Below the pieces are notes generated by a model. It was given only the letters and a program-made list of their open reading frames with translations, was not told the origin of the DNA and ran no database searches. Positions 38,593 through 41,513 of a DNA stretch of 64,000 nt are shown here, one piece after another. Position 1 is the first letter of the stretch; each line of letters starts with the position of its first letter. Origin of the DNA: an uncultured Poribacteria bacterium. Lineage in GTDB: Bacteria; Poribacteria; WGA-4E; WGA-3G. The position numbers and the translations under genes were made by a program. Location of the stretch: positions 4,672,001 through 4,736,000 of the forward strand of contig OX638351.1 in the NCBI GenBank assembly GCA_951813565.1, given 5' to 3'.

Positions 38593-39630
38593 CTAATGCA
38601 TATCTACAGAAAAAATATAACTGAGAATCGTCACCAAAATATAAGTTCCGACCAAAATGACACCAAACGGACGCTTCAATTGGCTTCCTGAAACGAAGAT
38701 GCCGATTCGGAAAACAATCAAAATAAACACCATCGCAGGAAAAAGAAACTGGAAAAATTTTCCTGATGCTTGCAAACCAATAGGTGTTGCAGCAGCTGAA
38801 ACTCCAGCAACAAAGAGAACATTCAGAATATCCGCACCAATGATGTTTCCGACTGCTAACTCACCATGTCCGCGCCGAACTGCTGTTATTGCTGTTACAA
38901 GTTCTGGTAGCGATGTGCCAAACGCGACAAGTGTTGCTGCAATGATTTCCTCTGGCACATTAAACCTAATTGCAAGGGTCTTCACAGTTGGAATAAGGAT
39001 TTGTGCAGCAATAACAACAATTGCAATTGACCCAATGAGTTTAAAAAGTGTAACAAACGTCCTAGACCCATCCGGTTCTGTTTCTTCATCGTGTTCAGAA
39101 GTAGGTGTTATTGAACCTGCCCATCGGATAGACTGCCAGATATACAACCCTAACAGCACAACAAAGACGAATCCCATAAATTGTGAAAGTACACCGCCTT
39201 GTTTAAAAACTTCCATCGGGGAAGACCAAGGAAAACAGGCTAACACCATGAGAATTCCGGCACTTACCTGAACATTGGACAACCGCGATGCCAATTCACG
39301 GTTAAAAGACAGTGGTGCAATCAGCGATGCTAATCCTAAAATTAAACCCGTATCACATATAATTGAGCCAACAGCATTTCCGAGGGCGAGTCCCGGCTCT
39401 CCTTGGACTGCCGACAGCACGGAAACCGCAGCTTCGGGCGTTGTTGTGCCGATACTCACAATTGTTGCACCAATAACCGCCTCACCTAAGCCCCATCGGG
39501 ATGAAAGCACCACTGCTTCATCTACTAACCAGTCCGCTCCTTTGCCAAGTGTGTAAAGCATCACTGCAACGATAAGAAAAAGGACTACGCTCGGTAATCC
39601 TACAATAAGTTGTTCAATCCAATGTTCCAT
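38593..39630 (-). CDS. Calcium/sodium (cation:Ca2+) antiporter, YrbG family
   Basis: GTTTPE and GTSLPE alpha repeats; GNAVGS and GNIIGA. Confidence 0.9.
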   Translation of the reverse strand: MEHWIEQLIVGLPSVVLFLIVAVMLYTLGKGADWLVDEAVVLSSRWGLGEAVIGATIVSIGTTTPEAAVSVLSAVQGEPGLALGNAVGSIICDTGLILGLASLIAPLSFNRELASRLSNVQVSAGILMVLACFPWSSPMEVFKQGGVLSQFMGFVFVVLLGLYIWQSIRWAGSITPTSEHDEETEPDGSRTFVTLFKLIGSIAIVVIAAQILIPTVKTLAIRFNVPEEIIAATLVAFGTSLPELVTAITAVRRGHGELAVGNIIGADILNVLFVAGVSAAATPIGLQASGKFFQFLFPAMVFILIVFRIGIFVSGSQLKRPFGVILVGTYILVTILSYIFSVDMH

Positions 39631-39724
39631 TAACTATAAATGTTCCTTCCAATCTGAAGATTATATAGACAAAGGTTATCACAGACACCGCACAAAGTCA
39701 AACAATAGTCCTATGTTTTTTAAC

Positions 39725-39754
39725 TTGAAATTGTGGGTACGAAGATGGTATCCT
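39725..39754 (+). promoter_or_regulatory. Putative sigma70 promoter upstream of the tmRNA-like gene
   Basis: TTGAAA-18 bp-TATCCT, with TG of an extended -10. Confidence 0.45.
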
Positions 39755-39768
39755 TGTACTATCAATAT

Positions 39769-39851
39769 GGGGGTGAAAGGATTCGACGGAGGACGAAAGC
39801 GTGGTTGCTTTCAATTTTCTCCGGATGTGGGTTCAATTCCCACCACCTCCA
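39769..39851 (+). ncRNA. Miniature tmRNA-like RNA: tRNA-like domain only, no tag ORF
   Basis: Acceptor stem GGGGGTG/CACCTCC with G3-U and discriminator A; stemless D-loop AAAGGATTCGA; helix CGGAGGA/TTCTCCG; T-arm GTGGG-TTCAATT-CCCAC. Confidence 0.8.
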
Positions 39852-40223
39852 TTTGAGTAAGTTGCCACACTTCAACTGATTGCTTCCCTCGCTTCCAACA
39901 CCTTCGCAACAACTGGATTTTTATACAGATACTTGGCTCAGAAAATGCGTATTTTGTGGATAGAATTGAGGTTAGATATGAATAGACGTATCTGTGTTTA
40001 TATCAAATATGATAACATTTCACTTTGCGAATTTGCAATGTGATTTGAGTGTAGGGGTTTCTTATGGCGAAATTCGGAGAGTGTTATCTTGTAGATAGAT
40101 TTATGGTATGGTTACGAAAAAGAAGAATGGACAATCTAACCTGATTATGATGGGCTTTTGCAGTCCTCAAAAAAGTTATTTGGTTTGTAATATTGGGTTC
40201 ATGACTTGCTAGAGATCAAAAAC

Positions 40224-41513
40224 TCAAGTCGTATCTGAATGTTGAAGCACCGCATCAAGCTGATCCATCACCTTGTGAAATGCTTCAACGTAATAAGACA
40301 TCAACTCAAGGTCGTTGGGCGGATTAACATCAAAGATGTAGCAGTGAGAGTCAATGAATTCAACGGCTTTAGGATAGTCCTCAGTCTTGTATTCAATAGT
40401 CGATTGATTGCATCGCCACGGGCAGCCTGTGCCGTAACCGATCCGGTTCTGGAAAATCTCTTGAGATGGGACAGGGAGTCGCTGCCACTGTCCAGATGGA
40501 ACACCCTCAGCGCGTAGCGCCGTTTGTATCTTCTCGCGCAAGGTCCGTGCAGGAATATCTAATCCCAACGCCTCTGGATTGAAACCGATGACATAGTTGT
40601 AATAAACGGGTTCGCATTCTTTTGGGGTAACAGGCGTCTCGATGCCATCAATTTCACTTAGATGTTCCGTGAGATAGTGGCAATTCTTGATTCGCATTGC
40701 ATTGTTCGCATCAAGCCGCTTGAGTTGGCTACGGATAAACGCTTGACTGAACATATCCCCACGATACATCCATCCGAGTCCATACGCGTTGTATTCCTGT
40801 TCCTCGCGTTCCCTACCCGGTACGACGATCTCCCCAAAATACTGCAACAACGCTGCGTGCTTGTAAATTTGCTCATCATCCGTTGTGAACAAACCGCCTT
40901 GACAACCGCTACTCAACGTCTTTGAGGCTTGGGTGCTATACCCCGCCGCGTCTCCGAACGCGCCGCAAGGTTTACCTTTATAATGTGCGCCATGTGCCTG
41001 CGCGACATCCTCAATTACTTTCAGATTATGTTTTTTTGCAACCTCCAGAATCGGATCCATATCGGCAGGCATACCGTGAATATGAACTGGCAGAATCGCG
41101 CGAGTCCGTTCGGTGATTTTCGCCTCAATCTCATTGGGATCAATACAATAGGTTACAGGGTCAATATCAACAAAGACAGGAATAGCGTTGTGATGGAGGA
41201 CGGCTGCTGCCGTCGCCCAGAAAGTGAAGGCGGGAACAATAACCTCATCGCCCGGTTCAATACCGACACCCGCGACACACAGATGCAACGCAGCGGTCCC
41301 ACTGTTGACGGGGATACAATACTCAACACCCATGTATTCCGCCCATTCCTTCGCGAGACCTTCGGATTGAATTCGTTGCTGTTCAGTAATTCTTTCGGAT
41401 GCGATAACCTCGGCAATCGCGTCCCTATCAGATTGGGTAACCTCTGGCCACGGTTGAATTAATCCATTAGGGACAGTCTTTTTTCCACCAGATATAGCGA
41501 GTTTTGCTGCCAT
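40224..41513 (-). CDS. DegT/DnrJ/EryC1/StrS family PLP aminotransferase
   Basis: NSGTAALH, VIVPAFTF, IEDVAQAHGA, STQASK. Confidence 0.92.
   Translation of the reverse strand: MAAKLAISGGKKTVPNGLIQPWPEVTQSDRDAIAEVIASERITEQQRIQSEGLAKEWAEYMGVEYCIPVNSGTAALHLCVAGVGIEPGDEVIVPAFTFWATAAAVLHHNAIPVFVDIDPVTYCIDPNEIEAKITERTRAILPVHIHGMPADMDPILEVAKKHNLKVIEDVAQAHGAHYKGKPCGAFGDAAGYSTQASKTLSSGCQGGLFTTDDEQIYKHAALLQYFGEIVVPGREREEQEYNAYGLGWMYRGDMFSQAFIRSQLKRLDANNAMRIKNCHYLTEHLSEIDGIETPVTPKECEPVYYNYVIGFNPEALGLDIPARTLREKIQTALRAEGVPSGQWQRLPVPSQEIFQNRIGYGTGCPWRCNQSTIEYKTEDYPKAVEFIDSHCYIFDVNPPNDLELMSYYVEAFHKVMDQLDAVLQHSDTT

Follow-up and report, generated by a model that had tools for sequence, protein, structure and literature searches.

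The stretch of DNA analysed here (the window, 64,000 nucleotides) belongs to the closed 5.43-Mb genome (G000) of an uncultured Poribacteria bacterium, a sponge symbiont, and carries on its forward strand an 83-nt RNA gene of the tmRNA family, hereafter the mini-tmRNA (Table 1). The gene is isolated, with a minus-strand gene on either side. The upstream one, divergent from it, encodes a Na/Ca exchanger (PF01699); downstream in this genome are genes encoding a DegT-type aminotransferase, then GluRS and GlnRS. In most relatives the end of a PLP-dependent decarboxylase gene (PF00282) directly follows the mini-tmRNA. Window positions 39860-39915 align with the 3' end of this convergent gene, which is intact in most relatives; G000 retains only its last few dozen bases, and the roughly 370 nt that reach to 40223 are non-coding there. 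Genes of phages, plasmids or integrases were not found near the locus.

Table 1 Features of the mini-tmRNA locus (window coordinates).
Feature	Position	Strand	Evidence
Promoter-like element: -35 TTGAAA, 18-nt spacer with TG, -10 TATCCT	39725..39754	+	9/12 consensus matches
TLD-only mini-tmRNA gene	39769..39851	+	RF00023 match, fold, 22 orthologues with covariation
Acceptor stem 5' strand GGGGGTG, including G3 of G3-U70	39769..39775	+	sequence, fold; 7/7 pairs invariant in 21 distinct sequences
Stemless D-loop analogue AAAGGATTCGA	39776..39786	+	aligned to tmRNA consensus GGaUUCGAC
P2-like 7-bp helix, 39787-39793 paired with 39817-39823	39787..39823	+	minimum-energy fold
7-bp hairpin inside P2-like helix, loop UGGU	39795-39812	+	fold; 4-nt bulge on 3' side
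T-arm GTGGG-TTCAATT-CCCAC, 5 bp and 7-nt loop	39827..39843	+	RF00023 alignment, fold
Acceptor stem 3' strand CACCTCC (U70) and discriminator A (39851)	39844..39851	+	sequence, fold, orthologues

Sequence and fold of the mini-tmRNA

Read 5' to 3', the gene is GGGGGTG-AAAGGATTCGA-CGGAGGA-C-GAAAGCGTGGTTGCTTTC-AATT-TTCTCCG-GAT-GTGGGTTCAATTCCCAC-CACCTCC-A. The Rfam tmRNA model RF00023 matches 39769-39854 at 64.4 bits (gathering score 47, E 8e-23) and is the sole Rfam family to reach its gathering score in the 64-kb window. A relaxed Rfam scan of 39600-40300 (E up to 1), in which overlapping lower-scoring matches of the same clan are hidden, gave nothing else of note. The RF00023 match extends from model position 1 to 374, but 304 consensus positions, which hold the pseudoknots and the tag frame, are replaced by 17 nt. 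The mRNA-like domain with its resume codon and tag reading frame is thus absent, both by this alignment and by ARAGORN; the latter, which requires a tag frame, reported no tRNA, no tmRNA and no tag in the window.

In the minimum-energy fold (-35 kcal/mol, z -3.17, with 1 of 200 shuffles equally good) the acceptor stem has 7 bp and includes G3-U70, the D-loop analogue is unpaired, a P2-like helix encloses a hairpin, and the T-arm follows a 3-nt linker. The hairpin reads GAAAGC(G)-TGGT-(T)GCTTTC and is the single nested element between the P2 strands, PK1-PK4 being absent from the fold. The tmRNA signature GGAUUCGAC spans 39779-39787, and the D-loop analogue is invariant but for one position in a 14-sequence alignment of the gene. 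The earlier note, made from the letters of the window, had listed the acceptor stem, G3-U70, D-loop, 7-bp helix, hairpin, linker and T-arm; all were found in the sequence and matched by the fold, and its description of tmRNA ends without an mRNA-like domain agrees with the RF00023 alignment. We infer that the mature RNA runs from G1 to the discriminator A83, CCA not being encoded. The RNA carries every sequence determinant predicted to direct alanine charging. The junction before its T-arm is GGAA or GGAU in the mini-tmRNAs, whereas 31 of 31 Poribacteria ssrA genes have GGAC.

A tRNA-Ala gene was ruled out, since ARAGORN finds no tRNA and the fold has no anticodon arm. Assembly collapse or a private deletion was likewise excluded: Logan contigs from four runs of two studies bridge 39300-40400 in one piece and with no indels, and the same short gene is present in 21 other species. 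The bridging contigs are near-identical to the genome and may include the sample from which it came.

Coexistence with full-length tmRNA and SmpB

The earlier note had proposed that the genome be checked for a full ssrA and smpB, and a full smpB-ssrA pair was found elsewhere in it. The full-length ssrA (C1:2195363-2195715, 178 bits with RF00023) is 350 nt long, has four pseudoknots and a tag read by ARAGORN as ADQELALAA, and begins 30 nt past the end of the sole SmpB match in the genome (smpB, C1:2194919-2195332). In three assemblies of the genus (G008, G013 and G019) Rfam gave the mini-tmRNA only. We did not take this as evidence that the mini-tmRNA has replaced ssrA: the three assemblies are incomplete and lack SmpB as well, so the smpB-ssrA locus is probably unassembled there.

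None of the 40 genus genomes encodes an RF-1-domain protein of ArfB size, such frames being of RF1 and RF2 size only. Hence tmRNA-SmpB may be the only known route of ribosome rescue in the genus. ARAGORN also called a permuted "tmRNA*" in G000 at C1:593527-594166, with the tag VGSDTPRRILQLA, overlapping a tRNA-Ala(tgc) gene. Rfam gives only a tRNA-size match of 30.8 bits there, and the call looks false.

Conservation and covariation within the genus

Upon searching with RF00023, a second match of 85-88 nt and 64-70 bits was obtained in 14 of 25 genus genomes and in none of 16 genomes from four other families of the order. The 14 mini-tmRNA sequences were then used to build a covariance model, which found a single copy, at 94-111 bits and at the same chromosomal site, in 22 of the 40 genus species. 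Among 151 genomes sampled from the phylum, 21 had a match of 94 bits or more, all of them within the 38 sampled members of the genus; the sister genus had none in 57 genomes, and the remaining 56 genomes had none except for a single 48-bit match (G138, described below). The 18 species that lack the gene include three closed genomes (G005, G009 and G021), and the mini-tmRNA is dispensable.

Pairing was analysed in the 22 orthologues (21 distinct sequences, 26 pairs, 543 pair cells). Standard pairs filled 99.1% of the cells, as against 44-67% when the partners were slid by 1-3 columns. Two-sided changes were seen in 5 of the 26 pairs (19 cells), and the covariation score was reached by none of 500 shuffles. 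The compensatory changes fall in three of seven P2 pairs and one of seven hairpin pairs, and one T-arm pair changes from U-A to C-G in 3 of the 21 sequences. The acceptor stem, in which G3-U70 is kept in all, says nothing about pairing because it is invariant. The 14-sequence alignment, which is independent of the covariance model, gave the same covariation picture.

Mean pairwise identity is 0.92 within the mini-tmRNA and falls to 0.53 and 0.61 upstream and to 0.47 and 0.56 downstream, so conservation starts at G1 and ends at A83. For the true ssrA in the same genome pairs identity is 0.91 over the whole length and 0.94 over the TLD (tRNA-like domain) ends. On this comparative evidence the mini-tmRNA is a real RNA gene maintained by selection. 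The relatives have the same short form, and no full ssrA, at the locus, and the earlier suggestion of a functional RNA is supported by the 22 orthologues, the covariation and the conservation relative to the flanks.

Promoter-like element and RNA ends

The promoter-like element stops 14 nt 5' of the first base of the mini-tmRNA. Such sites are equally common in shuffled sequence (2 found versus 2.1 expected), so the match by itself is not above expectation. What supports it is conservation, for 21 of the 22 mini-bearing genomes have a TTGAnA-N16-19-TAnnnT element whose end lies 11-14 nt 5' of G1. In the exception, G013, the upstream region has been replaced. The TTGAAA-18-TATCCT element pointed out in the earlier note is present, and a matching element is retained in all but one of the carriers.

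As had also been noted earlier, CCA is not encoded; TTT follows the discriminator in the window, and a T lies directly 3' of A83 in all 22 mini-bearing genomes. This is ordinary here, because 40 of the 51 ARAGORN calls of the genome lack an encoded CCA (11 have it), as does the full ssrA. Two genes of the CCA-adding family are present in the genome, and CCA addition to the mini-tmRNA is plausible from these sequences. In a search for RNase Z the best match was weak (76 bits versus a cut-off of 293).

Probable origin from the ssrA of the lineage

The 18 full ssrA genes of the genus start GGGGGTGA...GG(A/T)TTCGACGGAGGTAATTGCGATACAGGTTGCATG and finish ...TATCAATATGCTTTCGGACGCGGGTTC(A/G)ATTCCCGCCACCTCCA. 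From these the mini-tmRNA has kept the acceptor stem, the genus-specific GACGGAGG, GCG..GGTTGC and TCAAT..T(C/T)TCCGGA; other Poribacteria genera have GACGTGAG, GACGAAGG or GACGGAAG in place of GACGGAGG. The genome's own ssrA shares with the mini-tmRNA the acceptor strands GGGGGTG/CACCTCC, GACGGAGG at the start of P2, TCAAT before the 3' P2 strand, and a T rather than an encoded CCA after the discriminator. The two differ in that the full gene has a tag and lies directly 3' of smpB, whereas the mini-tmRNA has its own promoter-like element and no template.

The ends were compared over 68 positions, 24 from the 5' end and 44 from the 3' end. The genus ssrAs (n=18) match the mini-tmRNA at 55-59 of these positions (median 57), and the ssrAs of other Poribacteria genera (n=13) match at 53-56. 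Among the matches listed in the searches described below, 92 distinct phage minis match at 39-51 positions and 29 minis of other bacteria at 41-52. An alignment to the whole ssrA by gap-free extension was set aside, as it is biased towards long targets. Because the mini-tmRNA ends are closer to the genus ssrA than to the phage forms, the gene is most likely a duplicate of the lineage's ssrA that underwent an internal deletion of about 270 nt. The deletion would have fallen between GGTTGC and TTTATCAAT, removing pseudoknot 1, the tag frame and pseudoknots 2-4, and a new closing hairpin would then have evolved.

The history of the gene was followed on a midpoint-rooted tree of one protein, GlnRS (44 rows, 40 from the genus and 4 outgroups). 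The genus comes out as a single clade (99/94), and the mini-tmRNA is absent from both outgroup genera. The distribution of the 22 carriers takes at least five changes (4-6 in bootstrap trees, with starred branches forcing three); one non-carrier, G024, is 73% complete and is placed beside two carriers. Such a pattern would be explained by a single gain at the base of the genus, about four losses and vertical inheritance at one site. In the non-carrier G009 the exchanger upstream region is similar up to about the -35 box and divergent beyond, and in the non-carrier G005 a palindromic repeat lies in that place; both sites look like losses of the gene.

These losses, and the decay of the adjoining decarboxylase gene in G000, are what one would expect if the gene were a neutral relic, either an ssrA pseudogene in decay or a duplicated fragment of an attachment site. 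We give this explanation very little credence, since the mini-tmRNA is as conserved as true ssrA while its flanks are near-random, its pair changes are compensatory and its promoter-like element is conserved. Fragments left by island integration carry one gene end only according to PMC4131195. An att fragment of this kind was excluded, both gene ends being present with no integrase or phage gene nearby.

TLD-only tmRNAs of phages and other bacteria

Bacteria (one genome per species) and viral contigs were searched with the same pattern, two TLD signatures 32-62 nt apart, and matches were passed through a strict filter (7-bp acceptor stem, G3-U70 and A73). In bacteria at least 119 stretches matched, and 49 of the matches listed pass the filter. 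Twenty of these 49 are the Poribacteria form; the other 29 are forms of 76-104 nt from Nostoc (three species), Christensenella, Treponema, Butyrivibrio, Acidimicrobiia, Gemmatimonadota, Myxococcales and others. A Pfam family was assigned to 16 of 66 neighbouring ORFs of the bacterial matches listed; the families include GIY-YIG, a phage capsid, and PhoH together with RNase H. Five genomes were checked for a full ssrA: four have one besides the short form, and the fifth, an incomplete MAG, has the mini only.

Among the viral-contig matches listed (L203-L322), 119 of 120 pass the filter. They comprise 92 distinct sequences of 75-97 nt (mode 79), and share the interior motif (U/G)AAA(A/G)CC-loop-GG(A). 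Isolated Streptomyces phages (H1-H7) also carry a mini-tmRNA, with no feature annotated over it.

Several of the bacterial forms merit description. In three Nostoc species (L099, L114 and L143) an 81-nt phage-type mini-tmRNA adjoins the same aldehyde dehydrogenase gene, and a full ssrA lies alongside the mini in the one Nostoc genome checked; here too the mini may have become fixed in the chromosome. In G138, a Poribacteria MAG from a different family, there is a GC-rich 102-nt TLD-only tmRNA with encoded CCA (C185:7795-7896; L079 2001-2102 (-)), and the genome has a full ssrA as well; no Pfam family was assigned to the neighbours of the short gene. At L172 301-399 (+) a 99-nt sequence joins tmRNA ends across an internal deletion and encodes CCA; we take the ends to be of the enterobacterial type.

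The TLD-only kind of tmRNA is already published: one from mycobacteriophage DS6A is given as tmID 11587 of the tmRNA Website (Hudson, Lau and Williams 2014, PMC4131195). That record and the 119 viral-contig sequences show that the earlier note overstated the novelty of the form. The DS6A gene lies at JN698994 28478-28557, is unannotated there and scores below the Rfam tmRNA threshold. Like the Poribacteria mini-tmRNA it is about 80 nt long, with G3-U70 and A73, a stemless D-loop analogue, a short hairpin-closed P2, a T-arm and no tag frame. It differs in being phage-borne with a phage-type interior (ACGAAAACC-GCAC-GCGG), whereas the Poribacteria gene is chromosomal, comes from host ssrA by the comparison above, is vertically inherited across the genus, scores 64 bits and has a longer hairpin of 7 bp. 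The phage minis at large share with the Poribacteria form the overall architecture, the alanine identity elements, a length of about 75-100 nt and the lack of a reading frame. Those among the matches listed differ from it in their end positions, interior motif, viral context and diverse acceptor stems. For the phage minis as a class we found no publication in the literature searched.

The abundance of such RNAs in phages, and the phage genes beside some bacterial matches (capsid in L156; PhoH and RNase H in L136), raise the question of whether the Poribacteria gene is a prophage remnant or an acquired phage mini-tmRNA that serves the phage. We consider this very unlikely. The ends of the gene are nearer to the genus ssrA than to any of the 92 phage forms among the matches listed, and its interior does not have the phage-type AAAACC-loop-GG motif. 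Moreover, its neighbours are housekeeping genes with synteny conserved throughout the genus, and a blastn search with the 83 nt gave no match among 50,697 phage records.

Other known reduced and two-piece tmRNAs

The mitochondrial tmRNAs of jakobids and oomycetes (Rfam mt-tmRNA) lack the mRNA-like domain and, like the Poribacteria mini-tmRNA, retain just the tRNA-like part, the one that acts together with SmpB. A mitochondrial tmRNA is the sole tmRNA of its compartment, whereas the Poribacteria RNA coexists with a full-length ssrA. PMC3590771 speaks of a "reduced form" of tmRNA, and PMC4131195 mentions tmRNA homologs in oomycete mitochondria. TLD fragments have also been made in the laboratory for work on SmpB, EF-Tu and the ribosome (Gutmann 2003, Bessho 2007, Neubauer 2012, and Shimizu and Ueda 2006, as cited in PMC3968760 and PMC3895274). 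These have the same acceptor stem, D-loop analogue, loop-closed start of helix 2 and T-arm, but are engineered, whereas the Poribacteria mini-tmRNA is a natural conserved gene.

The earlier note had also entertained half of a two-piece system with the tag supplied in trans. This idea was dropped: both acceptor strands are colinear, the hairpin-closed P2 leaves no surface for pairing, and no match to a permuted-tmRNA family was found in the window or, at E up to 1 and with overlapping lower-scoring matches of one clan hidden, in 39600-40300. The gene is for the same reason of 5' to 3' order not the acceptor piece of a permuted tmRNA. The two-piece phage tmRNA of the OM43 phage Melnitz and the fragments of host tmRNA in the AcrIIIA1 paper are different cases. 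No publication on a chromosomal bacterial TLD-only tmRNA was found in the literature searched, outside which most subscription journals lie. What is new here is the host origin, the vertical inheritance and the coexistence with full-length tmRNA.

A second family of dispersed tRNA-like genes

Relatives carry another family of small genes: a search gave 47 matches, spread over 20 of the 40 genus genomes, G000 not among them. Examples are L052 301-372 (+), L054 301-371 (-), L080 298-368 (-), L391 and L395; four lie in tandem in L389 (G045 C50). The layout consists of a promoter resembling TTGTAA-N17-TATAAT and a leader of about 16 nt that pairs with a trailer, followed by a T-run. Between leader and trailer is a tRNA-like RNA of 68-76 nt whose acceptor stem is of the alanine type (G3-U70, A73); its D arm has 3 bp, and the loop of its anticodon-like arm reads UGA, UCU, UAU, UGU, GAA, GAC or the four-letter UGUC. 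In seven sequences 17 of 43 pairs are compensatory, and the members score 33-48 bits on the Rfam tmRNA model. To some members ARAGORN assigns a tRNA identity (Ser, Arg, Ile, Phe, Val or Thr). Their contexts vary and include TnpB, DDE transposase and housekeeping genes. By their sequences these RNAs may be alanine-charged tRNAs with non-alanine anticodons.

Proposed function

Given an RNA that has all of the TLD parts and a genome in which one SmpB is shared with full tmRNA, we favour the reading that the mini-tmRNA is an SmpB-binding, alanine-chargeable competitor of full tmRNA that lowers tagging, and put the probability of this reading at about one half. Expression, processing, charging, SmpB binding and physiological effect are all things that we infer from the gene. 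The RNA would be transcribed from its own sigma-70-like promoter and trimmed at G1 by RNase P and after A83, the CCA being supplied by a CCA-adding enzyme. AlaRS would then charge it with alanine through G3-U70 and A73, and the single SmpB of the cell would bind it at the elbow. Having no template, the mini-tmRNA would compete with full-length tmRNA for SmpB, EF-Tu and stalled ribosomes, such that a smaller share of rescue events would end in a degradation tag. The route could be sequestration of SmpB or donation of a single alanine without a tag.

Work on other tmRNAs bears on these steps. As described in PMC3968760, G3-U70 and A73 suffice for AlaRS, SmpB binds the TLD elbow with the D-loop/T-loop interaction required for binding, helix 2 of tmRNA mimics a long variable arm, and a TLD-SmpB-EF-Tu complex has been crystallised on the ribosome. 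A TLD-like molecule strongly inhibits tmRNA, perhaps via SmpB titration (Mao et al. 2009, cited in PMC4131195). Against the competitor reading, 18 of the 40 species do without the gene, and a constitutive inhibitor of trans-translation would be costly because the genus has no ArfB and tmRNA-SmpB is perhaps its only known rescue path. The GGAA/GGAU junction in place of GGAC and the lack of a clear RNase Z match (76 versus 293 bits) also speak against it.

The main job might instead be rescue without a tag. In such a scheme the alanyl-mini-tmRNA with SmpB would enter a stalled ribosome and accept the nascent chain, and the peptidyl-RNA would be released and hydrolysed, so that the ribosome is freed and the protein is spared proteolysis, as proposed for mitochondrial tmRNAs. 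Every element needed for charging and for entry into the A site is present and unvarying, peptidyl transfer to a TLD-only fragment has been seen in vitro (Shimizu and Ueda 2006, cited in PMC3895274), and a second rescue outcome could be useful to a genus that lacks ArfB. However, no release factor was identified for a template-less complex, the release factors found being RF1 and RF2 only, and the need for the same single SmpB means that the mini-tmRNA would be no independent backup. In addition, the similar E. coli TLD-like molecule inhibited rather than complemented, whether chargeable or not (Mao et al. 2009, cited in PMC4131195). On balance we regard tag-less rescue as an unlikely main job.

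Roles outside ribosome rescue were also considered; the RNA might, for example, donate alanine for the aminoacylation of lipids or the cell envelope, or act as a decoy for enzymes that target tRNAs. The second tRNA-like family of the genus, with the same alanine-type acceptor stem, suggests that such modules are reused. The invariance of the tmRNA-specific GGAUUCGAC and of the P2 base, neither of which a plain alanine minihelix needs, makes a carrier or decoy of this kind improbable, and no candidate partner gene is linked to the locus.

Implications

In the usual account of trans-translation a single RNA works with a single protein towards one outcome, in which rescue is coupled to tagging. 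The phage TLD-only tmRNA has been read as an anti-host device, and the organelle forms are the remnant of an only copy. The competitor reading of the Poribacteria gene, if true, would mean that cells benefit from a template-less competitor, since the paralogue is by our comparison host-derived and vertically inherited, coexists with full-length tmRNA and equals it in conservation. The TLD-only form would have arisen independently at least twice, once as the phage type and once as the host type. Such genes are probably under-annotated, because the Rfam tmRNA model detects the Poribacteria mini-tmRNA and ARAGORN misses it.

Tentatively, and with more doubt than assurance, the mini-tmRNA may be seen as a second, template-less rescue RNA that the lineage built from its own ssrA and kept as a host switch, either between tagged and untagged rescue or over the supply of SmpB, in convergence with the phage and mitochondrial forms. 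Together with the dispersed tRNA-like genes (Ser, Phe, Val, Thr, Ile and Arg anticodons), it could then be part of a wider, undescribed use of alanine-charged RNAs in Poribacteria. If the competitor reading is true, the gene would provide a natural handle on the balance of ribosome rescue versus proteolytic tagging.
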